Source of the DNA: Escherichia coli
Lineage (GTDB): Bacteria > Pseudomonadota > Gammaproteobacteria > Enterobacterales > Enterobacteriaceae
Strand: one strand, 5' to 3'
Assembly (NCBI GenBank): GCA_005400705.1
Contig: GCA_005400705.1_4079.1
DNA length: 64,000 nt
Notes under the pieces: generated by a model
Databases searched by the model: none
What the model was told of the DNA's origin: nothing
Seen by the model: the letters and a program-made list of their open reading frames with translations, nothing else
Position numbers and translations under genes: made by a program
In this document: positions 18,877 to 59,678 of the stretch, piece by piece
Position numbering within the stretch: the stretch's first letter is position 1
Layout: every line of letters starts with the position of its first letter

Positions 18877-18977
<101 letters not shown>

Positions 18978-18979
18978 CC

Positions 18980-19144
18980 ATGACGCATAAAGAATGGATG
19001 AATGACATTAATTTTAGATATGCAGGTTTCGGTAACTGGAGAAAGTATCATTGGGAAATCATGTCAGACCCAGCAGAATACGATAAACTTATAAACCATG
19101 AAGCGTATCCGTGGTTCTTTATTGAAATAATGGTACGAACATGA
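18980..19144 (+). CDS. small protein, MTHEEW family
   Basis: MTHKEWMNDINFRYAGFGNW...; below ORF-track cutoff. Confidence 0.4.
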   Translation: MTHKEWMNDINFRYAGFGNWRKYHWEIMSDPAEYDKLINHEAYPWFFIEIMVRT

Positions 19145-19305
19145 CACATGAAGAGTGGATGAAACGCCAAAAATTAAAGTGGAATCCTTATTATCTCTCG
19201 TTAGAGCCGAGAATGTGGGATGTGATACGTGTTAAATGTATGTACAAATCATTTCTTTGTGATATAATGGATGTTGAAGTTCTGATGCATATTGTGTACA
19301 GATGA
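19141..19305 (+). CDS. small protein, MTHEEW family
   Basis: MTHEEWMKRQKLKWNPYY...; ATGA overlap with previous paralog. Confidence 0.4.
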   Translation: MTHEEWMKRQKLKWNPYYLSLEPRMWDVIRVKCMYKSFLCDIMDVEVLMHIVYR

Positions 19306-19315
19306 TTAAAAAAAG

Positions 19316-19729
<414 letters not shown>

Positions 19730-19786
19730 CTAAATAATTCAGTACCAAGGAGATTAATATGTTTAAAGATGAACGTCCAGATTTGT

Positions 19787-19824
<38 letters not shown>

Positions 19825-19899
19825 GAATTCCACAATCAGACGTATATGGTGTAAGTTACGTCGATGCAATCCAGAACAAGATCTCTGGTACTCTAGGAA

Positions 19900-20109
19900 G
19901 TGGTGAATGTTAACCTAGACGGGTTTGATAATTGGACGATAGGCAATTATTACTTGACTAGCAGGTTTAAACTAGAGGTGATAGTCCTTCACCAAACTGG
20001 AAAACCGGATGGACTTTTATTTAAAAGGGTAAGGCGTGGAAATATGTTTACAGAAGTTGCTTTTAGTAGCCTGTACGCCCCACGTCAAGGTAGCCGAAAG
20101 GCAAGTTAA
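19900..20109 (+). CDS. possible small basic protein, or part of a non-coding transcript
   Basis: 69 aa ORF in a locally GC-richer, structured-looking segment between a promoter and a T8-run terminator; coding status uncertain. Confidence 0.3.
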   Translation: MVNVNLDGFDNWTIGNYYLTSRFKLEVIVLHQTGKPDGLLFKRVRRGNMFTEVAFSSLYAPRQGSRKAS

Positions 20110-20187
20110 AACGGGTGGTTATAAAGCTGAATTAACAGCGGCGTTTAAAAGCGTCACCATCCATTTTTTTTAATTAAAGTTGGTGAT

Positions 20188-20577
<390 letters not shown>

Positions 20578-20602
20578 TATTCAGTACTGATATAATTAAT
20601 TT

Positions 20603-20839
<237 letters not shown>

Positions 20840-20912
20840 CTTTTTAATTTAAAAGTACTTTACTGTAGTGTTTAGTACCGTATAATGTAAACAAAAGGAT
20901 AAAATAAAACTC

Positions 20913-21437
<525 letters not shown>

Positions 21438-21459
21438 TTAAAAAATCAGTACTTTATTA

Positions 21460-21750
<291 letters not shown>

Positions 21751-21751
21751 T

Positions 21752-21844
<93 letters not shown>

Positions 21845-21861
21845 TTCACATGATATAGGGA

Positions 21862-22347
<486 letters not shown>

Positions 22348-22431
22348 AAGAACGAAATGTAGACGGTTGTATTCAGTACTGAATCACATGGGGAGGTTGT
22401 GATTCCCGATTCAGTAGCTTATAAAGCAATT

Positions 22432-22537
<106 letters not shown>

Positions 22538-22556
22538 AGAGGTACTTCGAGTATGC

Positions 22557-22682
<126 letters not shown>

Positions 22683-22684
22683 TA

Positions 22685-22771
<87 letters not shown>

Positions 22772-22826
22772 GACTGCCAAACAGCTTGAAGTACTTTGTA
22801 GTGCTGCACCTATGCCGACACTTGGC

Positions 22827-22936
<110 letters not shown>

Positions 22937-22940
22937 ATCT

Positions 22941-23011
22941 GGTTGATTAGTTAAATGGTATAACACGGATCTTGTAAGTCTGAGTCATTAGTTCGATTCT
23001 AATATTGACCA
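22941..23011 (+). tRNA. tRNA-Thr (anticodon UGU)
   Basis: Acceptor GGTTGAT / ATTGACC (with G-U pairs), D arm GTTA-AATGGTA-TAAC, anticodon loop CTTGTAA, T arm ATTAG-TTCGATT-CTAAT; no encoded CCA. Confidence 0.7.
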
Positions 23012-43988: not shown

Positions 43989-44180
43989 ATGTTGATTTAT
44001 CAAAGTGAAAATATTCGTGTTATGCAGCATCCCTACTTACAAATCTTTGATGTGCAGCAGTATATGGAAGGTGATGACCCAAGAACCTATGGTCGTAAGT
44101 ATGATTACTTCACTGTAAAGCAGTGTAAAAATATTAACGAAGTACGACAATTAGTTCAAGAACTTCAAAACAAAGGTTGA
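43989..44180 (+). CDS. hypothetical protein
   Basis: ATG after AAGGA (track ORF 43935-44180). Confidence 0.45.
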   Translation: MLIYQSENIRVMQHPYLQIFDVQQYMEGDDPRTYGRKYDYFTVKQCKNINEVRQLVQELQNKG

Positions 44181-44198
44181 CTTCGGTCAGCCTTTTTT
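44175..44198 (+). terminator. terminator hairpin GGTTGAC-TTCG-GTCAGCC (repeat family) overlapping a -35 box
   Basis: 7 bp stem with UUCG loop and T6 run; TTGACT inside the stem is 18 nt upstream of TATAAT. Confidence 0.6.
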
Positions 44199-44234
44199 GT
44201 TATAATTCTCTTAATAAATTAGAGGATTTTAATT

Positions 44235-44675
44235 ATGTATGTATATCGTTTTGAACTTAAATTTAGTTACATTGAACCTAACTTAGATCCTGCACGAACT
44301 GTAGGTCCGTTTGCACGGTATTCAACCAGATACAGTACTAAAAATGGATTTGACCGTTTGCTCATGACTACACCTTCTCAATTCCAACCTGAACCAACTG
44401 AGGATGGGATCTATTCAATCAAAAGTGGATGGGTATTTGGCTGTCAAAGTTTGAAAGATTTGTTCAGATTCTTCACTATGGACTTAGGTAAATTGCATCG
44501 TGCTGGGTTTGCTATATCTGTATATGAAGTTCCAGACCACCATGTAGACATTGGTCGTAATCAGGTTCAGTACTATTGCGGTAGTGCTAAATTAGTTCGT
44601 ATCATGTCAGTTAAGGAAGCAAAGGATGAGTTCCGACAAAGTAAAAGAGAAACAAATGAGGTAATATATGGATAA
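44235..44675 (+). CDS. hypothetical protein
   Basis: SD GAGGA. Confidence 0.5.
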   Translation: MYVYRFELKFSYIEPNLDPARTVGPFARYSTRYSTKNGFDRLLMTTPSQFQPEPTEDGIYSIKSGWVFGCQSLKDLFRFFTMDLGKLHRAGFAISVYEVPDHHVDIGRNQVQYYCGSAKLVRIMSVKEAKDEFRQSKRETNEVIYG

Positions 44676-45012
44676 AACTCAAATAGAATTAAAGAAATTT
44701 GTTTCATTCTATCTTCCTGATGACCCACGTAATTCACAAAAAGATATTGAATATTATAATATCCTATCTAAACAGTTAATGAGAAAGTTTCAACAGTGTT
44801 TAACAATATTCAATACAGATGGAAGACGTAGATACCGAATCGTTTCAATGAATGATGAAAACGCAAATTTCTTTGATTACGATGTAGTCTTTAGGGCATA
44901 TAATGATGATCGTATAAAATTAAATTATGATCAAATTATACTTGACCTGAATGTTATATGTGTTATAATTACTCACATAGCCGAACTTAATGGTTTTAAA
45001 GAATGGTATTGA
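44668..45012 (+). CDS. hypothetical protein
   Basis: SD GAGG. Confidence 0.5.
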   Translation: MDKTQIELKKFVSFYLPDDPRNSQKDIEYYNILSKQLMRKFQQCLTIFNTDGRRRYRIVSMNDENANFFDYDVVFRAYNDDRIKLNYDQIILDLNVICVIITHIAELNGFKEWY

Positions 45013-45026
45013 ATATAGGATAACAT

Positions 45027-45293
45027 ATGAAGCTTAAATTACAATATAATGGATTTACTTTACGTAATGATACTGAATTTATTAATCGTTCTCCTGGTGC
45101 TGAACTGTTTTTACGAGAGATGAACATTCCTTTCATCATTACTACAGTGGGCGACCGTGAAGTTCTACAATACGCAGAGCATCCGATCATTGATGTTCCT
45201 TGGTACTCTGAGCATATGTACATGGATATGGCACGTCGCTACAACTGTAAGTTCGTAGTTGAAGGTGATAAAATTACAGTCGAATTTAAATAA
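45027..45293 (+). CDS. hypothetical protein
   Basis: SD GGA. Confidence 0.45.
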   Translation: MKLKLQYNGFTLRNDTEFINRSPGAELFLREMNIPFIITTVGDREVLQYAEHPIIDVPWYSEHMYMDMARRYNCKFVVEGDKITVEFK

Positions 45294-45304
45294 GGTAAAT
45301 TAAA

Positions 45305-45598
45305 ATGATCAGTACTTCAGTTAATGAAAGCATCGTCGCTGACGTAGAAATGGTTAAAGAATGTGCAGATGAAACTCTTCGTGATATGTACATTAATGAT
45401 TTAATTACTGAATACGGTAGTCGTGGTGTACACGAATTTATTCGTTTAAGTGGAGAGTTGATGAAAAATCGAATTCGTATGAAGCTTAACGTACATCCAA
45501 AAGCATGGGCATTTACATTAAAATACGCAGAAGATATTGTGAATTTGCGTCGAACTGAAGTATATGAACGTTTGCACAATGGTATGTTAGATAAATGA
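45305..45598 (+). CDS. hypothetical protein
   Basis: SD AAGG. Confidence 0.5.
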   Translation: MISTSVNESIVADVEMVKECADETLRDMYINDLITEYGSRGVHEFIRLSGELMKNRIRMKLNVHPKAWAFTLKYAEDIVNLRRTEVYERLHNGMLDK

Positions 45599-45607
45599 TT
45601 GTAAAAT

Positions 45608-45634
45608 AGGAATTCTTAAATGAATTCCTTTTTG
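45608..45634 (+). terminator. intrinsic terminator
   Basis: AGGAATTC-TTAAAT-GAATTCCT hairpin followed by a T run. Confidence 0.6.
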
Positions 45635-45650
45635 TTTATAAGGTATAGTA

Positions 45651-45872
45651 ATGAAATATATAGTACTTGTACTGATATTATTCAGTACTGTTGTAAGTGC
45701 TAAACAAAAAGAATATGTTAAATGTATAAATTATGAAGAGAAATATGTTGAAACATATAAAAAAAGTATAATTAAAAACGTTTCGATTACTAACAGAGCA
45801 ACAATCATTGTACTTAAAAATGGGTTAATTATGCTATATAAACCACACGTTAAATGTGAAATTATTAATTGA
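45651..45872 (+). CDS. secreted small protein (signal peptide)
   Basis: MKYIVLVLILFSTVVSA. Confidence 0.5.
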   Translation: MKYIVLVLILFSTVVSAKQKEYVKCINYEEKYVETYKKSIIKNVSITNRATIIVLKNGLIMLYKPHVKCEIIN

Positions 45873-45879
45873 GGAAATT

Positions 45880-46452
45880 ATGAATCGTAAAGGTCGTTTT
45901 AAAGTATCAAAAAAGAACAAAAGTTCTAGGTTTAAACCTATTGTTTTAACAGTTAAATCTAACAAAGAATTAACTGCACTTAGTAAAAAGATAATTTCAT
46001 CTAAGATTGAAGTATCATACGTAAATTCATTAAAATATATGAATGTCAAACCACTGGACCAACTCATTTCACTTATATTTGAACGTAATGATTTTGAGAT
46101 ATCAGTAGATGATTATAGAGCCTATAATGCTGGTTTCATTAATGTTACTTGTAATAAAAAACTAACTGAGTTGGAAAATTTGTCATGTATAATAAATCTA
46201 GATAAAGGTGTAGTGAAGTACCATTTTGTACATTTCACTAATATCAATAATGGAATGGGTGTACAATCCAGACCTATAGTGCCTACGTGTGATGTTACTA
46301 AATTAGCAAAGCTCAATGATGAAGAATATTTTCAAGAAAGCATTGTAACTGAGCATTTAGATGATATAATAGCTACTTACAAAGAATGCATATGGGTGTT
46401 GAATGCTATAAAACCTAAATTGTGTTTAATGAATATTGTTCGTGATTTATGA
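45880..46452 (+). CDS. hypothetical protein, EExFFQxS-motif paralog family
   Basis: ATG after GAGGAAA (track ORF 45856-46452); motif NDEEYFQESIVTEHL. Confidence 0.55.
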   Translation: MNRKGRFKVSKKNKSSRFKPIVLTVKSNKELTALSKKIISSKIEVSYVNSLKYMNVKPLDQLISLIFERNDFEISVDDYRAYNAGFINVTCNKKLTELENLSCIINLDKGVVKYHFVHFTNINNGMGVQSRPIVPTCDVTKLAKLNDEEYFQESIVTEHLDDIIATYKECIWVLNAIKPKLCLMNIVRDL

Positions 46453-46465
46453 ATGGGGAATCGTA

Positions 46466-46909
46466 ATGAGTTGGGTAAATGTTAATAGTATTGAACTTAA
46501 CGAACAAGATATTTTTGCATTTGTAAATTTAACTAATAACACAGTACTAAAAGGGCGTTTGTTCAGTGCGAGTGATGGATATAAATGGATCTCTTTGATG
46601 GATGATAGTGGTGTGATTTATAATGTAATGCAATTACCCCAATGGGTATATAGTAACACTGCCGACGATGTTCTTGCCGCAGTTATGCGTGAGTTTGAAA
46701 AACTCCCAGGTGGTGATATCAAAAACAAAGTTTTTAATGCAGAACGGAAAAATTATACAGCACAGCAGTTGGAATCCCTTGCCATTGCTGCTTATCAAGC
46801 TGCTATTAAGAAGCCAGAGTGCGTTATTCTTAAGTATGTACCAGACTTAAAACTTACGTTGGAAGACATGGATGCATTCATTTTTACATCTGAACTTGAT
46901 CAGTACTAA
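46466..46909 (+). CDS. hypothetical protein
   Basis: Internal ATG of track ORF 46436-46909. Confidence 0.45.
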   Translation: MSWVNVNSIELNEQDIFAFVNLTNNTVLKGRLFSASDGYKWISLMDDSGVIYNVMQLPQWVYSNTADDVLAAVMREFEKLPGGDIKNKVFNAERKNYTAQQLESLAIAAYQAAIKKPECVILKYVPDLKLTLEDMDAFIFTSELDQY

Positions 46910-47024
46910 TTTAACTTTGGGACAACCATTCTTATTATGATATAATGTTTTATGTCATTCGATATAAATGACAACGGAACTATAAATATTATAGTAAAAT
47001 TTATCTCTTATAGGAGTTATAAAA

Positions 47025-47408
47025 ATGGTTGATAAATGGAATAAGAAAGATCCATCACATGATGTTGATATTTCTGGTCTAGACAATGCACATAAGCACA
47101 AGTATCTAGATTCACTAGGTCTTCTAAAACCGGACCAAAGTCTTGCACATGATCGTCCATCCCGTGAAAAAGCATTTAGCCTAGAATCACTAGGTCATGA
47201 GCTTAATCGTGTGTTTGAGGATCACCCAATCTATGTACGTGATATTATCGAGAAACTTAAAGTAACTCCTAAAGAGCACTTTAAAGCAACAGTACACTCT
47301 GCATTCCGTGCATTGCATGATTCTCTCAAGAAAACTCACAATCTTCGTAAAATTCATGATGAAATCGTGAATGCAATCGAAAGTGAAAAACATAAGTTCA
47401 AGAAGTAA
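47025..47408 (+). CDS. hypothetical protein (shares YLDSLGLL motif with 47655 gene)
   Basis: SD AGGAG; KYLDSLGLLKPDQ. Confidence 0.5.
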   Translation: MVDKWNKKDPSHDVDISGLDNAHKHKYLDSLGLLKPDQSLAHDRPSREKAFSLESLGHELNRVFEDHPIYVRDIIEKLKVTPKEHFKATVHSAFRALHDSLKKTHNLRKIHDEIVNAIESEKHKFKK

Positions 47409-47415
47409 TAAAAAG

Positions 47416-47440
47416 GGGTTGACTAAGGTCAGCCCTTTGT
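47416..47440 (+). terminator. terminator hairpin (GGTTGAC repeat family variant)
   Basis: GGGTTGAC-TAAG-GTCAGCCC followed by TTTGTTG. Confidence 0.5.
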
Positions 47441-47477
47441 TGTATCATAACTTCTCAATATAACTGAGGTATCATAT

Positions 47478-47591
47478 ATGCAAGGTTTGAAATTTGTAGT
47501 TGCTGCACTCATCGCCGCAGTACTGGTTGGTGGTGTATTCTATGTAGTGGATCAAAAAGTAAATCCACCTGCACAAGAACAATCTAAGTAA
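47478..47591 (+). CDS. small membrane peptide (37 aa)
   Basis: MQGLKFVVAALIAAVLVGGVFYVV... between two terminator hairpins. Confidence 0.35.
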   Translation: MQGLKFVVAALIAAVLVGGVFYVVDQKVNPPAQEQSK

Positions 47592-47599
47592 CAAAATAA

Positions 47600-47624
47600 G
47601 GTTGACTTCGGTCAGCCTTTTCTT
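47600..47624 (+). terminator. terminator hairpin GGTTGAC-TTCG-GTCAGCC (repeat family)
   Basis: Identical stem-loop to 44175, followed by TTTTCTTT. Confidence 0.6.
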
Positions 47625-47654
47625 TATACTATAAATATAGTCATAGAGAAAAAA

Positions 47655-48932
47655 ATGAAATCTATGGAGAGAAATCAAATGCCAAGTAATTTTACTGATA
47701 AAAATGGTGGTAACATGGCTGGTCACTCTGATAAATGGAGTGAACGCAACCGCCGTCCAAATAGTTATCAAGCAGGTCAAGGTTCACGTGGGTCACGTAA
47801 TCAAGGAACTGGTCTAGCTGGTAAAGCAAACGCAGAAGCAGGTGAAGTTAAGAGTACTGAGAACATGACTGAGCTAGAAAAGCTACGTTATGTTAATTCA
47901 TTGGGACTTCTTAATGCTACACAAAAACAACGTCTAGCTGATATGGAACGTGAAGAAAAAGAAAAATCTGCTCCTGCTAAAGAAGAACCAAAACAAGAAG
48001 CACCAAAGGCGGTTAACCCTGTCAAAGAACTGTCTGATAAGTTAGGTAAGATTTTTGCTAATAAACCACAACTTATCCAAGGTATTGTGAAAGAATTGCA
48101 ATCTGTACCTAAAGAAGAATTAAAAGTCAAAGCACAAGCTGTACTTGATGCAATGAGTGGAAATACCAGTACTGAACCAACTGAAGTATTCAGTACTATA
48201 ATGCGTGCACTTGAAGGTACGCAACAAGGTGATGTGCCTGCACAAGAGGAAGTAAGTCTTGAAAGCGTACTTAAAACATTTGATAGTATTGGTAAAGAAG
48301 ACCGTGCTAATGCTCAACAAGTTAAGAATGTACTAGCTAAGTTAGAAAACCGTCTGGAAGGTAAAGACGATAAGATTAAATTAGTATCTGATGCAGTTAA
48401 CGATGCACTTAAATCTTACGTACAAGGTGAAAAGAGTCGTTTTGTAACTGCAATGGATGCTGCATTCAATACTATGAAAAAGTATGAAGCTGATCACGGT
48501 GAGAAGGTTACACGAGATGGTTATCTGATGCGTGATGATGAAGAAGGTGCAGTAGAACAGAACGATGTTCATTCAGACGAAGAAATTGATGACATGGAAG
48601 CTGAACTGTCACAAGACCGCCAAATGACTGAAAAATCCCATAACGAACTACAGAAATTAATGCAATGGGTTGCAGATGTTGGTGAAAAAGCTGGTGCTGA
48701 TAAGAAGAGTATAAACCGAAATCTTAGTTGGATTAAAGATAAAGTTGGTAACAACGCTCGTAAACTACAAAAAGCGTGGACTGATGTAGTGAATGGTGCT
48801 GTTGACATTGATGTTGAATCCGGTGAGGCATATGATTATGCATTGACTACACTTGATGACTCTTTCCGTGATTACGAAAATGGAAATGTAACTCCTTGGG
48901 AAAAGGACATCATGAGCAAATACGGTAAATGA
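47655..48932 (+). CDS. large hydrophilic protein (425 aa), hypothetical
   Basis: Gly/Ser/Asn-rich N-terminus, charged helical remainder; contains YVNSLGLLNATQ; exact start among three nearby ATGs uncertain. Confidence 0.55.
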   Translation: MKSMERNQMPSNFTDKNGGNMAGHSDKWSERNRRPNSYQAGQGSRGSRNQGTGLAGKANAEAGEVKSTENMTELEKLRYVNSLGLLNATQKQRLADMEREEKEKSAPAKEEPKQEAPKAVNPVKELSDKLGKIFANKPQLIQGIVKELQSVPKEELKVKAQAVLDAMSGNTSTEPTEVFSTIMRALEGTQQGDVPAQEEVSLESVLKTFDSIGKEDRANAQQVKNVLAKLENRLEGKDDKIKLVSDAVNDALKSYVQGEKSRFVTAMDAAFNTMKKYEADHGEKVTRDGYLMRDDEEGAVEQNDVHSDEEIDDMEAELSQDRQMTEKSHNELQKLMQWVADVGEKAGADKKSINRNLSWIKDKVGNNARKLQKAWTDVVNGAVDIDVESGEAYDYALTTLDDSFRDYENGNVTPWEKDIMSKYGK

Positions 48933-48942
48933 TAAAACAAAA

Positions 48943-48967
48943 GGTTGACTTCGGTCAGCCTTTTTTT
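48943..48967 (+). terminator. terminator hairpin GGTTGAC-TTCG-GTCAGCC (repeat family)
   Basis: Stem-loop followed by a T7 run. Confidence 0.6.
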
Positions 48968-49003
48968 GTAAATACAAAAGAGGAATTAAGAAGAGGGATT
49001 ACA

Positions 49004-49255
49004 ATGAAAAAATATATTATATTTGGAATTGTATTATTTTCCAGTACTACTTATGGTGCAGATTATCATTGCTCCGTAGCAAGGCAGGATTTCAGAAATG
49101 GGGAGTTCTATACTACCTCATACACAAAAGGAATAATACACGACACCGACAGAACTATTGGATTTAATGCGTTTGACAACAAAGATTCATATACTTCAGG
49201 TATACTATCTGAGCGTAAGACGGATGTACTCGGAATAGAAAAAGAGTTTCGGTGA
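49004..49255 (+). CDS. secreted small protein (signal peptide)
   Basis: ATG after AGAGGG (track ORF 48929-49255); MKKYIIFGIVLFSSTTYGA. Confidence 0.5.
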   Translation: MKKYIIFGIVLFSSTTYGADYHCSVARQDFRNGEFYTTSYTKGIIHDTDRTIGFNAFDNKDSYTSGILSERKTDVLGIEKEFR

Positions 49256-49259
49256 TTCC

Positions 49260-49589
49260 GTGGCAATGTGTAATGACATTGAAAGTACTAAAAAAATTTA
49301 TTATAATAATGAAATAAATTATCGTTTTCATAATTTAACCACAAATAAAAGTTTACTATTTTACAATTGTAAAGAAGTAAAACTCCCACCAGACAATAGC
49401 TGTACTCCAACTAATCAACCCCCAGCACAATGTAATACTCCCTCTGAACCTGATAAAAATAAAAAAGACAAAGATAAAGATAAAAAAGAAGACAAAAAAC
49501 CTTTAAAAGATAAAAAGAAAGATAAAAAACCTAATCCGTTTAAAAATAATAAACCAGCACAACCCGATATGACGTGTAAAATAAAATAA
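49260..49589 (+). CDS. hypothetical protein with K/D-rich low-complexity tail
   Basis: GTG start; Cys-containing N-part then KDKDKDKKEDKKPLKDKKKDKK. Confidence 0.4.
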   Translation: MAMCNDIESTKKIYYNNEINYRFHNLTTNKSLLFYNCKEVKLPPDNSCTPTNQPPAQCNTPSEPDKNKKDKDKDKKEDKKPLKDKKKDKKPNPFKNNKPAQPDMTCKIK

Positions 49590-49598
49590 GGATATAAA

Positions 49599-50018
49599 AT
49601 GAAAAAGATTTTTTTAAGTATTATTTTAGTACTTTTTAGTTTTAATGTATATGCAGCAGATGCTAAACAGGTTGCTAATACAGTAAAAGATGTTATAGTA
49701 GACAATGCTCCTACCTTAGAGGAAATTGGGGTAAAAACTTGTGATATTGTAATATATAATTTAGTTAATGATGAACGAGTTATGTTGAATACGTATGAAC
49801 AAGTAGTCCCATTGGTTGAATCTGGTGCTGCTTTTAGCTTTACATATAAAGTTAAATTAACAGGAGGGGTTGAAGTTAATCTTGACATTGATACCGCTTC
49901 AGTACTAAAAGATAAACTAGGATATGTGTTCAATCGTATTCGTGAAGAAGGTCATCTTAAGTATGTTTATGAAAGTAAAATACTAAAACGTGCAATAGTT
50001 ATAGAAAACTGTAAATGA
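49599..50018 (+). CDS. secreted protein (signal peptide)
   Basis: SD AAGGA; MKKIFLSIILVLFSFNVYA. Confidence 0.55.
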   Translation: MKKIFLSIILVLFSFNVYAADAKQVANTVKDVIVDNAPTLEEIGVKTCDIVIYNLVNDERVMLNTYEQVVPLVESGAAFSFTYKVKLTGGVEVNLDIDTASVLKDKLGYVFNRIREEGHLKYVYESKILKRAIVIENCK

Positions 50019-50027
50019 TAATAAAAG

Positions 50028-50051
50028 GGTTGACTTCGGTCAGCCTTTTTT
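50028..50051 (+). terminator. terminator hairpin GGTTGAC-TTCG-GTCAGCC (repeat family)
   Basis: Stem-loop followed by a T6 run, then -10-like TATGAT. Confidence 0.6.
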
Positions 50052-50087
50052 GTTATGATGTTGATATTAACTACAGAGGATAAAGTA

Positions 50088-50729
50088 ATGACTAAGCAAG
50101 AAATATTCAAAACTTTAATTGACATTTTGCGTCCATCAAAAACTCGTTGTGCGATGGAGTTTGATATTCCTTATGCTGAACGCGTAATCTTTCCACAAGT
50201 TAAAGCTGCTGGACTTACTTTGCTTGGAATGGGGATGTACTCTGTAGTAGTTGAACATAAAAACTATCCTGGGCGTGCATTTAAAGTAACCACTTCACGC
50301 TGGGATGGTTTTCGTGCTTATGCAATGTACTGCATTGAAAACGCAGGAACCAAGTTTCTTCCAGTGATCTACAGTGCAAACGAACAAGGAAACTTTGGAT
50401 GGTATGAGATGGACAAGTACTATCCTATAATTAAACAAAAAAATAATTATGATGACTTTGTTAGTACTAAAATTGGAGATTTATATTCTTATGCACATGC
50501 TGGTCAGTATGCTACTTCAGTGAATGATATGCGTGGAAATTCTGAAGAGATTGCTATTGCGACGGTCGCTGCTAACATCATGAAAGAGTTTCACGGGTGT
50601 TTTGTACCAGACATTCATTCCAGTAATGTCATGATGGATAAAGATGGCAATGTATTCATTACTGATCCTCTTTCGTGTGATGTACGTAGAGAAATACCAG
50701 TTACTGAAGAAGATCCAGTTTTTTATTGA
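50088..50729 (+). CDS. protein-kinase-like (phosphotransferase fold) protein
   Basis: ATG after AGAGGA (track ORF 50055-50729); catalytic-loop-like FVPDIHSSNVMMDKDGNVFITDP compares with aminoglycoside-phosphotransferase HGDLxxxNxx...DGxxxxIDL. Confidence 0.45.
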   Translation: MTKQEIFKTLIDILRPSKTRCAMEFDIPYAERVIFPQVKAAGLTLLGMGMYSVVVEHKNYPGRAFKVTTSRWDGFRAYAMYCIENAGTKFLPVIYSANEQGNFGWYEMDKYYPIIKQKNNYDDFVSTKIGDLYSYAHAGQYATSVNDMRGNSEEIAIATVAANIMKEFHGCFVPDIHSSNVMMDKDGNVFITDPLSCDVRREIPVTEEDPVFY

Positions 50730-50791
50730 CAGAACTGATGTAATGAGGTATTCTTAATAAACCATTAAAAAGTGCGGTAAAGGATAAAATC

Positions 50792-51073
50792 ATGCGTTCA
50801 TTTGAAAACTTAATAGGTAAGAATCTTTTATCTGAAATTGATGCAGACGTTAAAGAATTATCCAAATCAAAAAGTTACATTCATTTGGATGAACTATTTG
50901 TTAAGTACGGTGAGATTGGTTTTAAGTCATTATTTGTTTTTACTATGAAAGTACATAGTTTAAAGTACTTCGATTTGAGTGCTAAAGATGGTGAACCGAA
51001 TCTATATTACATGTATTACCTTAAGAACAAAGATGAAGCTAATACATTACTCTCTGAATATATATTGGGGTAA
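50792..51073 (+). CDS. hypothetical protein
   Basis: SD AAAGGA. Confidence 0.5.
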   Translation: MRSFENLIGKNLLSEIDADVKELSKSKSYIHLDELFVKYGEIGFKSLFVFTMKVHSLKYFDLSAKDGEPNLYYMYYLKNKDEANTLLSEYILG

Positions 51074-51075
51074 AA

Positions 51076-51414
51076 ATGGAACAATATTTTGAATTAATAA
51101 ACAAAGTATCATTTTATGTAGTATCTTTGGTTTGGGTGTATTATATGTTTTGCTACATTATTGCATTCTTCCGATACACTACTTTATATGAACGTATCTA
51201 CTATGATGCCCCAATTTCATTCTTGATGTTTTGTGCATGTACGTGGGGAATATTAGAAGTACTGATATGTGGGTATAGTACTGATGAATTAAATCTGGTA
51301 TCGGTGTTGACTGGGTTTTCATTTGTTGTTATGATAGCTGCCGTTCCAGTATGGTTGTTCTTTGGACTAGTTCATCGCATTGATATATGGCGTTCTAATA
51401 TCCCTGAAAAGTAA
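51076..51414 (+). CDS. small multi-TM protein, array A member 1
   Basis: About 112 aa, 3-4 TM segments, FFRYTTLYERIYYDAPI after TM1, C-terminal RSNIPEK. Confidence 0.55.
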   Translation: MEQYFELINKVSFYVVSLVWVYYMFCYIIAFFRYTTLYERIYYDAPISFLMFCACTWGILEVLICGYSTDELNLVSVLTGFSFVVMIAAVPVWLFFGLVHRIDIWRSNIPEK

Positions 51415-51423
51415 GGATTGGTA

Positions 51424-51765
51424 ATGATTTATTACACTAACATGTTTGCCTATGCTGTTGCTTGCATTTACATTGTTTACTTCTTATTCGGTGGAGTACT
51501 GTGCTTCTTTAAGTACAAAACGTTGTTCAACCGAATGTACCCAAATCATCCAATTGTAGTTGTACTTTTGATTCTTTCAGTTTCTCAAATAATCGTTGAA
51601 ACTACAATGGGTATCAGTAGTGTACATTATAGTTTTGGTACTATAGTAATTATTACTATGCTTATTGCATACATTTTAGTACTTGGATATGGTATCTTTG
51701 GTAATATTGGTATGAAAATGTATCATCGAATTAAAACATTACGTGATAATCTACCGGAGCGTTGA
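51424..51765 (+). CDS. small multi-TM protein, array A member 2
   Basis: ATG after AAGGA (track ORF begins at a TTG at 51418); FFKYKTLFNRMYPNHPI; C-terminal LRDNLPER. Confidence 0.55.
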   Translation: MIYYTNMFAYAVACIYIVYFLFGGVLCFFKYKTLFNRMYPNHPIVVVLLILSVSQIIVETTMGISSVHYSFGTIVIITMLIAYILVLGYGIFGNIGMKMYHRIKTLRDNLPER

Positions 51766-51766
51766 T

Positions 51767-52111
51767 ATGTATAATTTGAACCTAATCTCATATATTATAA
51801 CAACACTGTTTACATTCTATGCCTTTGTTGGTATAATCCTACTGTACTTTAAATTTTATAAAGTGTTTAACCGTTTCTATCCTTCAATGGAGAATGAGTT
51901 TTTCTTTGTGTTGTACGTATGTTACACATTCATGGCTACATGTTTCACTGTAGTCGATGGTGTCATCGGCATTAAAACTGCTGCACCAAATGGTAGTACG
52001 CTGGTTGCATTTATTCTTACCGGATTCCTTGCAACTTATATTGCCTTCATTGCAACATGGTCAGTGGTTGAATTTCTCTTGCGACTACGAAAGAATATGC
52101 CGAATCGATAG
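51767..52111 (+). CDS. small multi-TM protein, array A member 3
   Basis: ATG after GGAG (track ORF 51743-52111); YFKFYKVFNRFYPSMEN; C-terminal LRKNMPNR. Confidence 0.55.
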   Translation: MYNLNLISYIITTLFTFYAFVGIILLYFKFYKVFNRFYPSMENEFFFVLYVCYTFMATCFTVVDGVIGIKTAAPNGSTLVAFILTGFLATYIAFIATWSVVEFLLRLRKNMPNR

Positions 52112-52120
52112 GAGACATAT

Positions 52121-52375
52121 ATGTTTGCATTGCGTAACAAAAACACTAAAGAAATATTATGTTTAGATACCGTATGGGATTGTGCGGGATCAACTACAGT
52201 TCTTGAAGAAGGAACTGGATATTGCGTGTTTGTTGTACATGATAGGAATGAACTCGAATTATTACTTGCTGAGTTCAATGCTGGTGGTAATCCTAACAGT
52301 ACTGAATACCCTGAGATTATCAATCCAGCACCACCAGGCTCTTATGAAATTCTACAACTGTGGGAGTTGAAGTAA
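52121..52375 (+). CDS. hypothetical protein
   Basis: SD GGAGA. Confidence 0.5.
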   Translation: MFALRNKNTKEILCLDTVWDCAGSTTVLEEGTGYCVFVVHDRNELELLLAEFNAGGNPNSTEYPEIINPAPPGSYEILQLWELK

Positions 52376-52755
52376 TGCGTCAAATGCACAAAGTAACCGA
52401 GCTAAACAAGCGTCTGGTTAAACAATCAATGTTCGAGGATAAAGAGTCTTATTATAACTTTAAACGTGCTGTAGAGGCTGCTATCCACATTCAGAAGCTT
52501 AAAGAACGTGGTTGTATTATTCTGGAAAATGGGTCGGAAGTTGTAACGGATGACTTTAGTGTAGCGTTTGATGTTTCACCTGACGGGACGCTATCAATGC
52601 CCCGCTTAGGAACTGGAAACATGACTGTTTGGGTTGGCTTCACTATGGGGAATGTACCTGGTACTGTGTACGTAGATGATGCGGAATTGAAAGACAGTTT
52701 CAAAAACTTATCTTATCTTGAACCACAATACGCACATGAAATGAATTTATTTTGA
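52375..52755 (+). CDS. hypothetical protein
   Basis: ATG after GGAG (track ORF 52360-52755). Confidence 0.5.
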   Translation: MRQMHKVTELNKRLVKQSMFEDKESYYNFKRAVEAAIHIQKLKERGCIILENGSEVVTDDFSVAFDVSPDGTLSMPRLGTGNMTVWVGFTMGNVPGTVYVDDAELKDSFKNLSYLEPQYAHEMNLF

Positions 52756-52756
52756 G

Positions 52757-52784
52757 TTGACAAACACATTCAGTACTGTATAAT
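52757..52784 (+). promoter_or_regulatory. sigma70-like promoter with extended -10
   Basis: TTGACA-AACACATTCAGTACTG-TATAAT. Confidence 0.6.
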
Positions 52785-52831
52785 GCTTATCAAGGGGATG
52801 AACTTCTCATCCCTACAATCGAGGAACTACC

Positions 52832-53386
52832 ATGATTACTTTTAAGAAAACTGCTAACCACATCCATGAAATCTACATTAACGGTCACAAAGCTGGCCTT
52901 CTTCGTTTACTCGCCCATCATCCTGATGTTACCGTATCTGATAATGAACCTAAAGATTGGCGTGTATTTTTCTTTGGAAAGTACAGTGATTTTCAAGTAT
53001 CAAACCTGAAGAACATTCGTTCAGTATGCACGTTAACTGAAATTAAAGAAAAGTTAGAAAAAGCATTGAAAACTAATCCAGATGGTGTTCTTCCACCTGA
53101 TAACTTTGTAGAGAAAGGTTATGCATTAGCTCATTTCAAAGATGGTACTATTCAATCTATCAGTACTGAATATGAATATCAATGGACTGAGTACTTCACT
53201 TATGGATCGCGTAATACATTGATGGCTTCACGTAGTAAATTGGAAGAAGTACTGACTCGTATGAATGAACGCGAACGTCAATTTTATGACAAACCAGAAA
53301 TGTGGAGTTCAACTTACATTGACCGTATTGACTATGTTATTATGACTCCAATCTTTGACACTGCTTACTATGATTCTTTGAAATAA
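52832..53386 (+). CDS. hypothetical protein
   Basis: SD GAGGAA. Confidence 0.55.
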   Translation: MITFKKTANHIHEIYINGHKAGLLRLLAHHPDVTVSDNEPKDWRVFFFGKYSDFQVSNLKNIRSVCTLTEIKEKLEKALKTNPDGVLPPDNFVEKGYALAHFKDGTIQSISTEYEYQWTEYFTYGSRNTLMASRSKLEEVLTRMNERERQFYDKPEMWSSTYIDRIDYVIMTPIFDTAYYDSLK

Positions 53387-53397
53387 GGATAACTTAT

Positions 53398-53574
53398 ATG
53401 AAACTACGTACTCGTAATCGACTGATGGATGCACTGTACCATGAACAGCTTTCACTGAATGAAGTGAAGCGACAGTTAATGTACACATATCTGTTACCCG
53501 CTCGCATTGCAAAACAACGTGCTAAAGAATTGCTGAAAGAAGCAATCGAGTACTGGGAATCTGATTCATACTAA
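53398..53574 (+). CDS. small ORF (58 aa), basic, hypothetical
   Basis: ATG after AAGGA; below ORF-track cutoff. Confidence 0.35.
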   Translation: MKLRTRNRLMDALYHEQLSLNEVKRQLMYTYLLPARIAKQRAKELLKEAIEYWESDSY

Positions 53575-53613
53575 TATTACGTGATATGTCACGTTAATTA
53601 AGTGAGGCGATAA

Positions 53614-53865
53614 ATGAAAATATTATTAGTTTTAATACTACTAATAGTTTTACCATTTACTTTAGTATCCCCTGGACTTGCATGGAATGTATTTGTGTAC
53701 TTAGTATGTACTATTGTAGTAAATGGTATCTTGTTCTTAGTTCTATTCATAAATGGAATAGGACACGGTGGAGGATGGACCAGTACTGCTGATATTGTAC
53801 ATAAAACCACTATGTCTTTATTTGTAGTGTGGAATTTATTCTGGACTTGGTTTGTGTTCTTCTAA
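53614..53865 (+). CDS. small membrane protein (hypothetical)
   Basis: SD GAGG; three hydrophobic segments. Confidence 0.5.
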   Translation: MKILLVLILLIVLPFTLVSPGLAWNVFVYLVCTIVVNGILFLVLFINGIGHGGGWTSTADIVHKTTMSLFVVWNLFWTWFVFF

Positions 53866-53874
53866 TTAAAAAAT

Positions 53875-54246
53875 ATGAATATAGATTTGAAAGGTGCAAC
53901 CCGAACTGTTATCCTCATTGGGGAATACGCTATCAAGATTCCAACCTTTAAAAGTTGGAAGCTATTCTTAACAGGGATGATAGCTAACCTCAATGAACGT
54001 TCGTGGATGCAGTACTCCAAGCGTAGTGATACTGGTATCTGTCCTACTTTGTGGTCATCATGTACTGGACTAGTAACTGTACAGAAACGTTGTAAGCCAG
54101 TGCAACATAGGGGTTTATTTTGGGTGGAGTTGTGTGCTTTAGCATTGAATACAGAGTTAAGTACTGACTTCTTCTATTCAGATGCGAAGCCAGAAAACTT
54201 TGGGTATCTGGGTGGTAAGTTAGTTAAACTTGATTATGGAGATTAA
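53875..54246 (+). CDS. hypothetical protein
   Basis: 123 aa ORF. Confidence 0.5.
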   Translation: MNIDLKGATRTVILIGEYAIKIPTFKSWKLFLTGMIANLNERSWMQYSKRSDTGICPTLWSSCTGLVTVQKRCKPVQHRGLFWVELCALALNTELSTDFFYSDAKPENFGYLGGKLVKLDYGD

Positions 54247-54247
54247 T

Positions 54248-54517
54248 ATGTACGCACTGTATAATAAAGAAAAGAAACGATTTGCTAAGGTTGAAATTTC
54301 GATTGATACATTTGATATGTTGGAGTACTGTATTGTAACTGACCTATCTGCTAACTTGTATTACGTTCATGATGACGTATCAGTACTGCAACGATTGCTT
54401 GAGAATTCCAAAAGTCAATGCCAGGACATCCATGATGGTTCATCTTATGAAACACCTGAGTGTCCCCACGGGCAACTCGATGGGTATGAGATTGTTAAGT
54501 TGGGAATTGTTGAGTAA
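54248..54517 (+). CDS. hypothetical protein
   Basis: ATG after GGAG (track ORF 54230-54517). Confidence 0.45.
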   Translation: MYALYNKEKKRFAKVEISIDTFDMLEYCIVTDLSANLYYVHDDVSVLQRLLENSKSQCQDIHDGSSYETPECPHGQLDGYEIVKLGIVE

Positions 54518-54523
54518 AAGGTA

Positions 54524-54552
54524 TTGACACCGTACTCATTTAACTGTATTAT
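54524..54552 (+). promoter_or_regulatory. sigma70-like promoter with extended -10
   Basis: TTGACA - 17 nt - TGTATTAT. Confidence 0.5.
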
Positions 54553-54582
54553 GTATGTACACCAACTAATGAGGAATCGGAA

Positions 54583-54942
54583 ATGGCATCTTTATCTGAA
54601 ATCACTGAACTGAATCCACTGGTAATTAGTACTGTTCAACGCACCAAGACGTTTTACTTCCGTCCTGCTGATGGATGGAAACGTGGAATGAATGGTGACT
54701 ATCGAGTACTGGAAGATTCGCTCATCGAGCGTATCAACTCTGAACTACAGAAGTATGAAGGTGTTAAAGTTGTCCGTTCAACTTCTCGTTATTTTGAGTA
54801 CTACATTGAGTCTTCAACTGTAAATGAAAACTCATCATTCTCGGTGGATAACACTGATATTCTTCGCAATGCAGTTGGTTTGCTATGCAACATTGCAGAA
54901 GAAATGGGATTAACTATCACCACAATGAGTGAGTTAGAATAG
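54583..54942 (+). CDS. hypothetical protein
   Basis: SD GAGGAA. Confidence 0.5.
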   Translation: MASLSEITELNPLVISTVQRTKTFYFRPADGWKRGMNGDYRVLEDSLIERINSELQKYEGVKVVRSTSRYFEYYIESSTVNENSSFSVDNTDILRNAVGLLCNIAEEMGLTITTMSELE

Positions 54943-54952
54943 AATAAAAAAA

Positions 54953-54976
54953 GGGTTGACTTAGGTCGGCCCTTTT
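54953..54976 (+). terminator. terminator hairpin (GGTTGAC repeat family variant)
   Basis: GGGTTGAC-TTAG-GTCGGCCC followed by TTTT, then -10-like TATTAT. Confidence 0.55.
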
Positions 54977-55012
54977 GCTATTATATCTATATCGAAACGA
55001 AGGAGACAAACC

Positions 55013-58293: not shown

Positions 58294-58335
58294 TAAAAAA
58301 TCCAGTACTATTAAGTACTGGATGTATAAGGAGTT

Positions 58336-59402: not shown

Positions 59403-59494
59403 TGTATCCTCCAAATGTAAATCATTATTATATTTAGGACAAAAAAATGCCAGTACAAGGCACTGGCATAAAATCTAAGCAGAAGGCATATCCT

Positions 59495-59605: not shown

Positions 59606-59678
59606 AATTCCCTCCTTTTATTTGTTATACTATATTTAATACAAATAAGAAAGCCAGTATCAAGTACTGGCTTTTACA

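Follow-up and report, generated by a model that had tools for sequence, protein, structure and literature searches.

Promoter-early stem-loops (PeSLs) are known from T4-type phages. They were described in phi1/RB49 (Arbiol et al. 2010, PMC2839356) and occur also in PST/T4 and nt-1/KVP40 (Comeau et al. 2014, PMC4122927). In lacZ fusions, phi1/RB49 PeSLs have both promoter and terminator activity, and one tested stem-loop cut lacZ as strongly as rrnB T1 (PMC2839356). Five subclasses have been published; in one of them the stem-loop overlaps the -35 (PMC2839356).

Two further systems are close to the elements that we describe here. The cUUCGg intrinsic terminators of T4 intergenic regions likewise have a short, GC-clamped stem, closed by an extra-stable C(UUCG)G loop and followed by a U-run, and they too come directly behind stop codons. 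Unlike our elements, ordinary terminators are under no constraint to keep a -35 in the stem or a -10 at a fixed spacing downstream. In the Rak2-like phages CBB and GAP32, RpoD-type early promoters with UP-like elements have been predicted (Buttimer et al. 2017, PMC5259590). These promoters come from the same phage group and the same kind of early small-ORF region, and they have the same TTGAC(A/T)-17-TATAAT arrangement behind an A-rich upstream tract. In the CBB study, GGGTTGACTTCGGTCAGCCC appears in the terminator table only (Torf39, 515, 518, 520) and not among its 18 promoters; a dual terminator/promoter reading is not made (PMC5259590).

The DNA analysed here is a stretch of 64,000 nucleotides (the window). 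It comes from an Asteriusvirus, a Rak2-like E. coli jumbo phage of the 121Q/PBECO4/G17 type, and is 95-98% identical to Asteriusvirus genomes. Its elements resemble PeSLs in several ways. Both are repeated intergenic motifs in variable, ORFan-rich (hyperplastic) regions. Both contain, in the same order, a stop codon in an AT-rich tract, sigma70-type -35 and -10 boxes, a stem-loop with G.U pairs, a ribosome-binding site and an ATG, and in both the stem-loop can lie over the -35. Close relatives differ by indels or replacements with chimeric elements at the junctions, and 'half' elements exist in both. Sequence features that mark a PeSL are present: intergenic repeats, a -35 and -10 about 17 nt apart with an AT-rich tract (in five of the six copies), a stem-loop, a Shine-Dalgarno sequence with start codon, and indel junctions.

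The T4-type myovirus host is not shared. Asteriusvirus is a Rak2-like jumbo phage and not a member of the Straboviridae, a difference of taxonomic scope rather than of structure. The architecture also differs. Here it is fixed around a nearly invariant 18-mer (TTGAC in the 5' arm, cUUCGg, U-run spacer), whereas phi1/RB49 PeSLs have GGGG...CCCC stems at variable positions. Furthermore, the Asteriusvirus copies are clustered in about 11 kb, and their promoter and terminator activity is predicted from sequence. We consider it probable that the six copies are PeSL-type cassettes, in which the same ~45 bases would both terminate and initiate transcription, while the copies would also serve as recombination patches. 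The evidence consists of sequence anatomy, predicted RNA folding, conservation, covariation and element-overlap junctions in relatives; from it we infer that the elements terminate and initiate, how efficiently and when they would do so, and how recombination would proceed.

Six copies in the early region

With up to three mismatches allowed, GGTTGACTTCGGTCAGCC has exactly six matches in the window, all on the + strand. They start at 44175, 47417, 47600, 48943, 50028 and 54954. Two carry two mismatches and the other four none. Shuffled sequence gives 0.01 copies on average, and six copies were reached in none of 100 shuffles. The original prediction of six near-identical copies is thus confirmed, with two of its positions (47416 and 54953) including one extra 5' G. 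The 7-bp stem that it described is correct as a core, which flanking A/G-T/C pairs lengthen to 9-12 bp. Four copies have the UUCG loop; the loop of 47417 is UAAG and that of 54954 is UUAG. As predicted, each hairpin is followed by a T-run; two of these runs are short or interrupted (CTTTGTTG at 47435, CTTTTG at 54972). The predicted distance of 17-18 nt between TTGACT and a -10-like hexamer holds for five copies (TATAAT, TATCAT, TATACT, TATGAT, TATTAT) and fails for 48943. Three copies have the TG of an extended -10.

The common layout is an A-tract, an RNA hairpin with TTGACT in its 5' arm, and then the T-run. All six copies are intergenic: a stop codon precedes each of them, and the next ribosome-binding site (GAGG-type) and ATG follow 55-75 nt 3' of the hairpin start. 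The elements are:

44166..44206, + strand, copy 1: A-tract 44166-44174; hairpin 44175-44192, pairing out to 44172-44195; -35 TTGACT 44177-44182; T-run 44193-44198; TGn and -10 TATAAT 44201-44206; fold -14.1 kcal/mol, z -4.7
47408..47448, + strand, copy 2: hairpin 47417-47434 with UAAG loop; -35 47419-47424; T-run CTTTGTTG; -10 TATCAT 47443-47448, spacer 18; -17.0 kcal/mol
47591..47630, + strand, copy 3: hairpin 47600-47617 with UUCG loop; -35 47602-47607; T-run TTTTCTTT; -10 TATACT 47625-47630, spacer 17; -12.4 kcal/mol
48934..48968, + strand, copy 4: hairpin 48943-48960; -35 48945-48950; T-run of 7; -14.3 kcal/mol
50019..50059, + strand, copy 5: hairpin 50028-50045; -35 50030-50035; T-run; TGn and -10 TATGAT 50054-50059, spacer 18; -14.8 kcal/mol
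54945..54984, + strand, copy 6: hairpin 54954-54971 with UUAG loop and two G.U pairs; -35 54956-54961; T-run CTTTTG; TGn and -10 TATTAT 54979-54984, spacer 17; -17.5 kcal/mol

The cluster spans ~11 kb (44.2-55.0 kb) of an early, ORFan-rich region, where most neighbouring proteins have no Pfam match and an alignment of eight genomes is rich in indels. In copy 1, the 63-aa gene upstream ends with its TGA stop codon (44178-44180) within the -35 and 5' arm. Homologues of this gene occur in RB49-like, T7-like and rV5-like phages. A direct link to phi1/RB49 through the gene was rejected: at the phi1 locus there is a 27-nt tandem repeat that contains TTGAC, but no hairpin element of this kind. The gene 3' of copy 5 is annotated in relatives as a gp0.7-like protein kinase; its start codon is likely the ATG at 50088 and not the ATG at 50055 within the -10.

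Copy 4 has no acceptable -10. The best candidates are TAAATA and GTAAAT, and a -10 is also missing at this position in G17, SD-15_S21, 121Q and WPEC3. Hence, this copy would at most be a terminator with a -35 (a terminator-only or 'half' element). A search for half-elements within the window found none.

In Rfam, the window and four related loci matched tRNAs only, with no family for the element or for the downstream CCCATAGGGTG motif. A literature search with the literal element sequence found no evidently related report. In the literature on Rak2-like phages we found no transcript 5' or 3' end or reporter data, and the phAPEC6 paper is without transcription data. A paper on the jumbo phage N1M2 was set aside, as it deals with phiKZ-like promoters.

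RNA pairing and probable termination

The upstream RNA, (A)nGG-UUGAC-UUCG-GUCAG-CC(U)n, would fold into a stable hairpin of 9-12 bp followed by a U-run. Such a structure would act as an intrinsic terminator, or at least as a strong attenuator and 3'-end protector. Predicted folds of the sense strand reach -12.4 to -17.5 kcal/mol (z -4.7 to -5.6), and no shuffled sequence folds as well, whereas the antisense strand reaches only -9.3 to -10 kcal/mol. The anatomy is that of an intrinsic terminator: a GC-rich hairpin with a U-tract immediately behind it, both 3' of a stop codon and in the orientation of the gene. ARNold terminator annotations coincide with these hairpins in G17 and in the CBB supplement.

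Variation among copies preserves the stem. Immediately outside the 18-mer with which copies were retrieved, the pair (n=82) is GC in 64 cases, AU in 11, GU in four and UA in two, and is unpaired in one. Within the core stem, 13 of 17 changes remain paired, as U-G/U-A or G-U/U-G. Altogether pairing is retained in 96.9% of cells, with compensatory changes that are mostly G.U. That stem variants keep their pairing points to selection on the RNA.

The elements could be promoters whose hairpin is an inefficient terminator and instead protects the 3' end of the upstream message after read-through and processing, or acts as a weak attenuator that tunes transcription along the array. Tuerk et al. in 1988 reportedly described cUUCGg hairpins as mRNA-stabilising structures of T4 intergenic regions, which would suit this reading, as would the short U-runs in 47417 and 54954. 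'Terminator/attenuator' is, moreover, the PeSL authors' own wording. We nevertheless regard inefficient termination as unlikely. Four copies have the canonical anatomy, a hairpin of -12 to -15 kcal/mol followed at once by 6-8 U-rich residues, ARNold classes the hairpins as terminators, and the tested PeSL stem-loop lowered lacZ as much as rrnB T1 did.

Within the preferred reading, in which the elements terminate as well as initiate, termination may be partial at 47417 and 54954, given their short or interrupted U-runs and non-UNCG loops. A built-in terminator scan picks up no more than three of the copies. The others are missed apparently because their T-run is absorbed into the extended A-T stem, and we do not take these misses as evidence against termination.

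Predicted promoter parts within the element

In duplex DNA the 5' arm of the hairpin would provide the -35 (TTGACT), with the A-tract upstream in the place of a proximal UP element. The 3' arm and the T-run would form a spacer of 17-18 nt, at the end of which lies an extended -10 (TGn) with its TATAAT-like hexamer. With these parts, host sigma70 RNA polymerase would be expected to start a new early transcript, its 5' end some 20-25 nt upstream of the following start codon.

Alternatively, the elements may be plain intrinsic terminators, in which TTGAC and the TATAAT-like hexamers are by-products of AT-rich intergenic DNA and lead to no meaningful initiation. Public annotations of G17, UE-S1 and CBB record the hairpins as terminators only, and the hairpins are missing from the list of RpoD-type promoters in CBB. 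Copy 48943 has no -10, and promoter-like sites overall are no more common in this AT-rich DNA than in shuffles (107 vs 102.9 expected).

A comparison across phages speaks against by-products. We collected 90 distinct element copies from many phages and counted a -10 when at least five of six positions matched TATAAT at a spacer of 16-19 nt. Such a -10 is present in 69 of the 90 copies (77%) compared with 4.3% of random positions in the same loci, and 70 copies (78%) have TG at -15/-14. When the 14-nt core occurs without hairpin and T-run (that is, by chance), a -10 follows in three of 98 cases; with hairpin and T-run it follows in 58 of 75. The elements thus have the layout of a sigma70 extended -10 promoter (TGn, a TATAAT-like hexamer and a -35 at 17 +/- 1 nt).

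Conservation gives the same picture. The A-tract is conserved across copies. In orthologues of copy 1, whose flanks are ~80% identical, the block from A-tract to -10 is unchanged but for a single A/G substitution in the 3' arm in WPEC3, which leaves the pairing intact. Divergence begins immediately 3' of the -10, exactly where the conserved block stops. Furthermore, termination does not require TTGAC in the stem, yet the same design recurs on unrelated outer stems in the uncultivated phages L148, L269, L118, L048 and L155. We therefore think it improbable that the elements are terminators alone.

The idea that each copy is at once a terminator and the -35 of the next promoter is hence well backed by comparison (77% vs 4%; 3/98; pairing; ARNold; PeSLs), except at 48943 with its missing -10. 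The original prediction that the elements divide the segment into single-gene units did not survive. Consecutive elements enclose 8, 1, 1, 3 and 13 genes (G17-type annotation mapped onto the window), and hairpin-less promoters lie inside these units:

50726: hairpin-less sigma70-type promoter, predicted from sequence, within an inter-element unit
52757..52784, + strand: hairpin-less consensus promoter, TTGACA-16-TATAAT, with CAGTACTG in the spacer
54524..54552, + strand: hairpin-less sigma70-type promoter, TTGACA-17-TATTAT

The promoter at 52757 lies inside the 13-gene unit; units would thus be subdivided further without hairpins. In G17, an element and a denV cassette lie upstream of the promoter equivalent to 54524. 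Judged by sequence, the many hairpin-less promoters of the region suggest that the hairpin is dispensable for promoter function. Since the hairpin lies within the footprint of promoter-bound RNA polymerase, both activities could even interfere instead of cooperating.

If the sites are also promoters, then at least five unannotated early transcription starts are predicted in the region, and annotations that list terminators only would be corrected. An element of about 45 nt would carry a -35 and a -10 together with a UP-like tract, the hairpin and the U-run as spacer; one copy accommodates a stop codon too.

Cassette boundaries and possible spread

The copies are near-identical, in direct orientation and between genes, and may therefore act as short homology patches. 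Recombination between two copies would delete, insert or swap the intervening cassette and leave one intact hybrid element. Excised mini-circles, formed when neighbouring elements recombine, belong to the PeSL description; the genomes compared here show the evolutionary outcome, deletion with a chimeric element. This aspect was absent from the original prediction. Two cassettes of the window are of particular relevance:

47435..47599, + strand: one-gene cassette (37-aa ORF 47478-47591) between copies 2 and 3
48961..50027, + strand: three-gene cassette (genes 49004-49255, 49266-49589 and 49599-50018) between copies 4 and 5

Both are missing from UE-S1. In each case a single chimeric element is found instead, and the alignments overlap by exactly the element (44 bp for the one-gene and 41 bp for the three-gene cassette). 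In WPEC3, three ORFs take the place of the one-gene cassette. In the place of copy 6, G17, CRJP21, phAPEC6 and 121Q have two separate elements, with a variable two-gene cassette between them that is absent from the window. Thus, in three events the alignments overlap by 41-55 bp equal to the element, the signature of recombination between two copies.

Between the window and seven relatives, indel junctions fall at five of six element boundaries compared with six of 37 other gene boundaries (Fisher p = 0.0025). About half of the region's indel events do not involve elements, and viable indels at gene boundaries are expected in any case.

Could the hairpin primarily be a target at the DNA level? 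It might form a cruciform or be a site for a phage recombinase, homing endonuclease or regulator, so that cassette indels are site-specific events rather than products of homologous recombination. Indel junctions do lie within the element, an annotated HNH endonuclease gene adjoins an element directly on its 5' side in WPEC3, and the PeSL authors raise the possibility of a specific protein. We nevertheless consider a DNA target very unlikely. G.U (G.T in DNA) stem variants stabilise an RNA and not a DNA cruciform, the antisense strand folds poorly, and crossovers are not assignable to one fixed nucleotide. When we considered the variable inter-element genes as homing endonucleases, none had an HNH or GIY-YIG Pfam match; the only domain was CapR, in 121Q gp221. 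That endonuclease mobility caused these indels is hence not established. Besides, the 18-mer is common to phage families without an obvious dedicated shared enzyme.

Read as PeSL-type cassettes, the elements extend the PeSL idea from T4-type to Rak2-like jumbo phages: self-contained terminator-plus-promoter linkers would insulate small early genes and double as crossover points for cassette shuffling. Compact, portable and apparently functional across hosts, the element could also be a synthetic insulator part.

The same 18-mer turns up in Aeromonas phage 65, which is T4-type, and in Vibrio phages of the KVP40 kind. The cassette occurs in these phages as well as in Rak2-like jumbo phages, CR3/CR9-type Vequintavirinae and the Gram-positive Brochothrix phage A9. 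This distribution poses a clean question, convergence or horizontal transfer. Tentatively, and with considerable doubt, we suggest that a nearly invariant cassette of ~45-60 nt (A-tract, GGTTGACTTCGGTCAGCC, T-run, TGnTATAAT and often a CATCGAAAC start region) may have passed horizontally between large virulent phages of unrelated families, where it would be a common recombination linker for moving early-gene cassettes from one family to another. The alternative is convergent evolution of a tightly constrained design. At the sensitivity of megablast, the phage collection contains no close relative of contig L003; contig L002 (108 kb) is a fragment of a Rak2-like phage, and L006 is CR9-like.

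Copies of the element and their predicted promoters

The repeated element is a real, non-random feature. A search of the window for GGTTGACTTCGGTCAGCC with up to three mismatches returned all six sites of the original prediction and none extra. Four matches are exact and two carry 2 mismatches, compared to 0.01 matches expected by chance (shuffles). Every copy lies in a short intergenic gap, after a stop codon and before a ribosome-binding site and ATG, with an A-rich tract on its 5' side and a T-run on its 3' side. Half-copies were not found elsewhere in the 64 kb window.

Copies of the element, with the -10-like hexamer and upstream TG of each
44175, + strand: copy 1; -10 TATAAT, upstream TG present
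47417, + strand: copy 2; -10 TATCAT, upstream TG absent
47600, + strand: copy 3; -10 TATACT, upstream TG absent
48943, + strand: copy 4; without a usable -10
50028, + strand: copy 5; -10 TATGAT, upstream TG present
54954, + strand: copy 6; -10 TATTAT, upstream TG present

In the five copies with a -10-like hexamer, TTGACT in the 5' arm of the hairpin precedes it by 17-18 nt. The A-tract and GG adjoining this -35 on its 5' side span about -46 to -38. These are also the positions of the proximal UP-element subsite (AAAAAARNR), whose place we take the A-tract and GG to occupy.

The region from 44 to 56 kb shares 95-98% identity with Escherichia phages CRJP21, phAPEC6, SP27, G17, 121Q and PBECO4 of the genus Asteriusvirus, Rak2-like jumbo phages of ~350 kb. 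Its genes are small and co-oriented, and nearly all are without Pfam matches. Relatives also have a gene in this region with the annotation gp0.7-like protein kinase, and some have an annotated denV. In related phages, such a region has been proposed to be an early, host-takeover region with RpoD-type promoters (PMC5259590). The suggestion that the elements divide this segment into single-gene units does not hold: with the G17 annotation mapped onto the window, the units between elements comprise 8, 1, 1, 3 and 13 genes. Ordinary promoters without hairpins subdivide the region further (50726, 52757, 54524 and 55796).

A 63-aa ORFan (43989-44180) lies 5' of copy 1 and ends ...AAA GGT TGA, so that its stop codon is part of the -35 TTGACT and of the 5' arm of the stem. 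Its product has homologues with 36-54% identity in T7-like, RB49/phi1-like and rV5-like coliphages; it is a small gene that has moved between phage families. In phi1, three tandem 27-nt repeats (AAGTACAACCGAAAATAAGTTGTTGAC), each with TTGAC, sit 5' of the homologue of this gene (815-886 of the fetched locus L047, upstream of ORF260). In the gene annotated as gp0.7-like kinase in relatives, the longest ORF begins at ATG 50055, inside the predicted -10 (TATGAT) of copy 5. RefSeq 121Q gp205 takes this start; G17 and phAPEC6 take the downstream ATG 50088, preceded by a GAGGA ribosome-binding site. A real promoter at copy 5 would make ATG 50055 the wrong start.

Predicted hairpin and promoter across copies

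Folded as sense-strand RNA, the six copies form hairpins of 9-12 pairs, in which A-U or G-C pairs lengthen the 7-bp core. Four copies have a UUCG loop, and the other two have UAAG or UUAG. Folding energies lie between -12.4 and -17.5 kcal/mol, with z-scores between -4.7 and -5.6; none of the shuffled sequences folds as well. The antisense strand reaches just -9.3 to -10 kcal/mol, since C-A replaces the U.G pair there. The U-run has 6-8 residues in four copies and is short or interrupted at 47417 and 54954.

Copies from other phages provide a comparative test. Public viral contigs were scanned for NNTTGACTTCGGTCARNN, and among the matches listed the exact 18-mer is present in 39 stretches. Pooling these with close relatives and collapsing near-identical sequences left 90 distinct copies. 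The flanks lie outside the search pattern and hence are independent evidence. A hexamer with at least five of six matches to TATAAT follows at a 16-19 nt spacer in 69 of the 90 copies (77%), compared to 4.3% at random positions in the same loci. The spacer is 17 or 18 nt in 84 of the 90, and 70 carry TG at -15/-14. As an internal control we scanned with the 14-nt core alone, taking matches that lack the flanking pairs and T-run as chance occurrences. Among the matches listed, such a -10 follows 3 of 98 cores without flanking pairs and T-run, but 58 of 75 cores with hairpin and T-run.

Structure was counted over 82 distinct copies. The pair adjoining the retrieved 18-mer on its outside is GC in 64, AU in 11, GU in 4, UA in 2 and unpaired in 1. 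Thirteen of 17 departures within the core keep the pairing through wobble or Watson-Crick toggles (U-G/U-A, U-A/U-G, G-C/G-U, C-G/U-G). Across the stem alignment 96.9% of cells are paired, versus 19-63% after shifting the 3' partner by one to three columns. Taken together, the tolerance of G.U pairs and the difference between strands argue for selection on an RNA hairpin rather than on a DNA cruciform. Copy 1 can also be followed in its orthologues in UE-S1 and WPEC3, where the flanks are ~80-83% identical. The block running from the A-tract through the final -10 base is unchanged, except that WPEC3 has one A/G change in the 3' arm that keeps the pairing; divergence begins directly past the -10.

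The scans with the 14-nt core also recovered the same design with unrelated outer stems in other uncultivated phages, for example GGCCAC-TTGACTTCGGTCAG-GTGGCC-TTTTATAAT in locus L148, with further cases in L269, L118, L048 and L155. Because the outer stems are unrelated, the arrangement of a -35 in the stem, a UUCG loop, a T-run spacer and a -10 is, at the level of sequence, a recurrent solution and not a single accident.

Probable PeSL-type cassettes as favoured crossover points

Composite elements of this kind are known from T4-type phages. In the variable regions of phi1 and RB49, Arbiol et al. (2010) reported intergenic cassettes present in repeated copies, the promoter-early stem-loops (PeSLs; PMC2839356). 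Each combines an AT-rich tract with near-consensus sigma70 boxes, a G.U-containing stem-loop, and a ribosome-binding site with ATG. The position of the stem-loop defines five subclasses, one of which has it over the -35. A PeSL stem-loop reduced lacZ expression about as much as rrnB T1, a wild-type PeSL had an activity of about 13,000 Miller units, and neighbouring PeSLs recombine to yield deletions and mini-circles (PMC2839356). Comeau et al. (2014) extended PeSLs to PST/T4 and nt-1/KVP40 under the name "composite promoter-terminator motifs"; they also reported degraded "1/2" PeSLs (PMC4122927).

The elements in the window show all sequence-level features that define PeSLs and differ in scope solely by the group of phages that carries them. 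The term PeSL appears in only four papers of the searchable literature, none of them on Rak2-like phages. The CBB paper lists GGGTTGACTTCGGTCAGCCC among terminators only, and the motif is absent from its 18 RpoD-type promoters (PMC5259590). The G17, UE-S1 and Munch records likewise annotate the sites as terminators. Hence the dual reading as terminator and promoter appears not to have been reported before for the Rak2-like group, although the element itself belongs to a known kind.

To see how gene content changes around the elements, we aligned the 41-59 kb part of the window with seven relatives: G17, CRJP21, phAPEC6, 121Q, SD-15_S21, UE-S1 and WPEC3. In UE-S1 the 37-aa gene that separates copies 2 and 3 is missing, and a single element stands in its place, with a left flank matching copy 2 and a right flank matching copy 3; the two alignments share 44 bp, and these are the element. 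UE-S1 lacks the block of three genes from copy 4 to copy 5 in the same manner (41 bp overlap). G17, CRJP21, phAPEC6 and 121Q have two elements around a small gene and a large variable gene of 372-628 aa (with a CapR domain in 121Q) where the window has one element (54954; overlaps of 43-55 bp). In WPEC3, three ORFs lie between the counterparts of copies 2 and 3, and a gene annotated as HNH is inserted immediately 5' of another element. After denV, G17 carries a degraded half-element (GGGTTGACTTCGGTTACAC, position 14373 of the fetched G17 locus L001) that keeps the 5' arm and loop and has lost the 3' arm and T-run, like the "1/2 PeSLs" of T4-type phages.

Five of the six element-bearing gene boundaries, versus 6 of 37 other boundaries, fall at an indel junction in one or more relatives (Fisher p = 0.0025), counted after correcting one mis-called ORF boundary at 48932. 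About half of roughly 15 distinct indel events do not involve an element. One of these is a ~300 nt length polymorphism at 48567-48622, inside a 425-aa gene (47655-48932; virion structural or SMC-like protein by annotation in relatives), which separates the window and phAPEC6 from G17, 121Q, CRJP21 and WPEC3. Another is a clean deletion of 53578-53871 in SD-15_S21. Thus the elements are, judging from these alignments, favoured but non-exclusive crossover points.

The elements are best explained as putative composite terminator-promoter cassettes of the PeSL type that also serve as linkers for recombination. That one element both terminates and initiates transcription we consider probable. Upstream early transcripts would end or be strongly attenuated within the U-run, which would double as the promoter spacer. 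Host sigma70 polymerase would start ~7 nt past the -10, giving 5' leaders of 20-25 nt. Copy 48943 would act as a terminator only. The hairpin presumably blocks read-through into the following gene; lying within the footprint of the promoter-bound polymerase, it would not shield the promoter from an incoming polymerase. With terminator and promoter in one block of ~45 nt, a crossover between any two copies would restore a complete element, and a cassette inserted in this way would be insulated on arrival and supplied with its own promoter.

Distribution and associated motifs

A search with a 40-nt consensus matched 308 GenBank phage records. The element occurs at 4-14 places each in Rak2-like jumbo phages (Asteriusvirus, K64-1, CBB, Serratia BF, Yersinia fHe-Yen9-04, Salmonella Munch and 7t3), and exact 18-mer copies are also found in IMG/VR contigs that are putatively RaK2 and GAP32. 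In 121Q, 9 of ~10 copies fall inside a 21.6-kb stretch (L043), all at most ~14 kb apart. Outside this group, the element is present in T4-type Aeromonas phage 65 (100% over 35 nt), at 4-5 places each in KVP40-like Vibrio phages, in CR3/CR9-type myoviruses (~150 kb), and at two places in the Gram-positive Brochothrix phage A9.

The core is set nearly wholly by function (TTGAC, the C(UUCG)G loop and the complement), so convergence can explain much of this distribution across families. Copies with other outer stems show that either convergence or diversification takes place. That a shared linker has spread horizontally between families seems unlikely to us. About one in six copies, from several phage groups, share CATCGAAAC just past the -10, and CGAAAC is found in 14 of 90 copies (background 3%, a figure for GAAAC). 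This shared sequence implies that the repeated unit reaches beyond the -10.

Copies in Rak2-like, CR9-like and KVP40-like phages share CATCGAAAC(G)A, which abuts the -10 near the expected transcription start (54985-54998 in the window; the Rak2-like fragment L002, the CR9-like L006, and the loci L014, L029, L036 and L040). A second subfamily has ATTTCATCAAC past the -10. Some Rak2-like copies have a conserved CTAACCCATAGGGTGC ~20 nt past the -10 in place of a ribosome-binding site and ATG: L002 (2022, 4946, 7125), the 121Q locus L011 (1965), L018 and L025. The motif is absent from the window and has no Rfam match. In L018 and L025 its reverse complement, GCACCCTATGGG, follows ~60 nt further downstream, and then a second promoter. 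This arrangement may represent a short non-coding transcript.

The palindrome CAGTACTG (ScaI-like core AGTACT) is unrelated to the TTGAC hairpin. It occurs 41 times in the whole window versus 0.85 expected (shuffles), for example at 19331, 19810, 20582, 38107, 38445 and 52771. In several ordinary sigma70-type promoters it occupies the spacer and adjoins the -10 (…TTCAGTACTGTATAATG). It also forms the stems of minus-strand terminator-like hairpins (58300-58323, 59447-59469 and 59650-59674) and is dispersed in coding sequence. It could serve as an operator, as a modification or recognition site, or as a second regulatory motif. Consensus promoters bearing CAGTACTG are also interspersed among the six genes (Rfam) of a tRNA cluster at 18783-23011.
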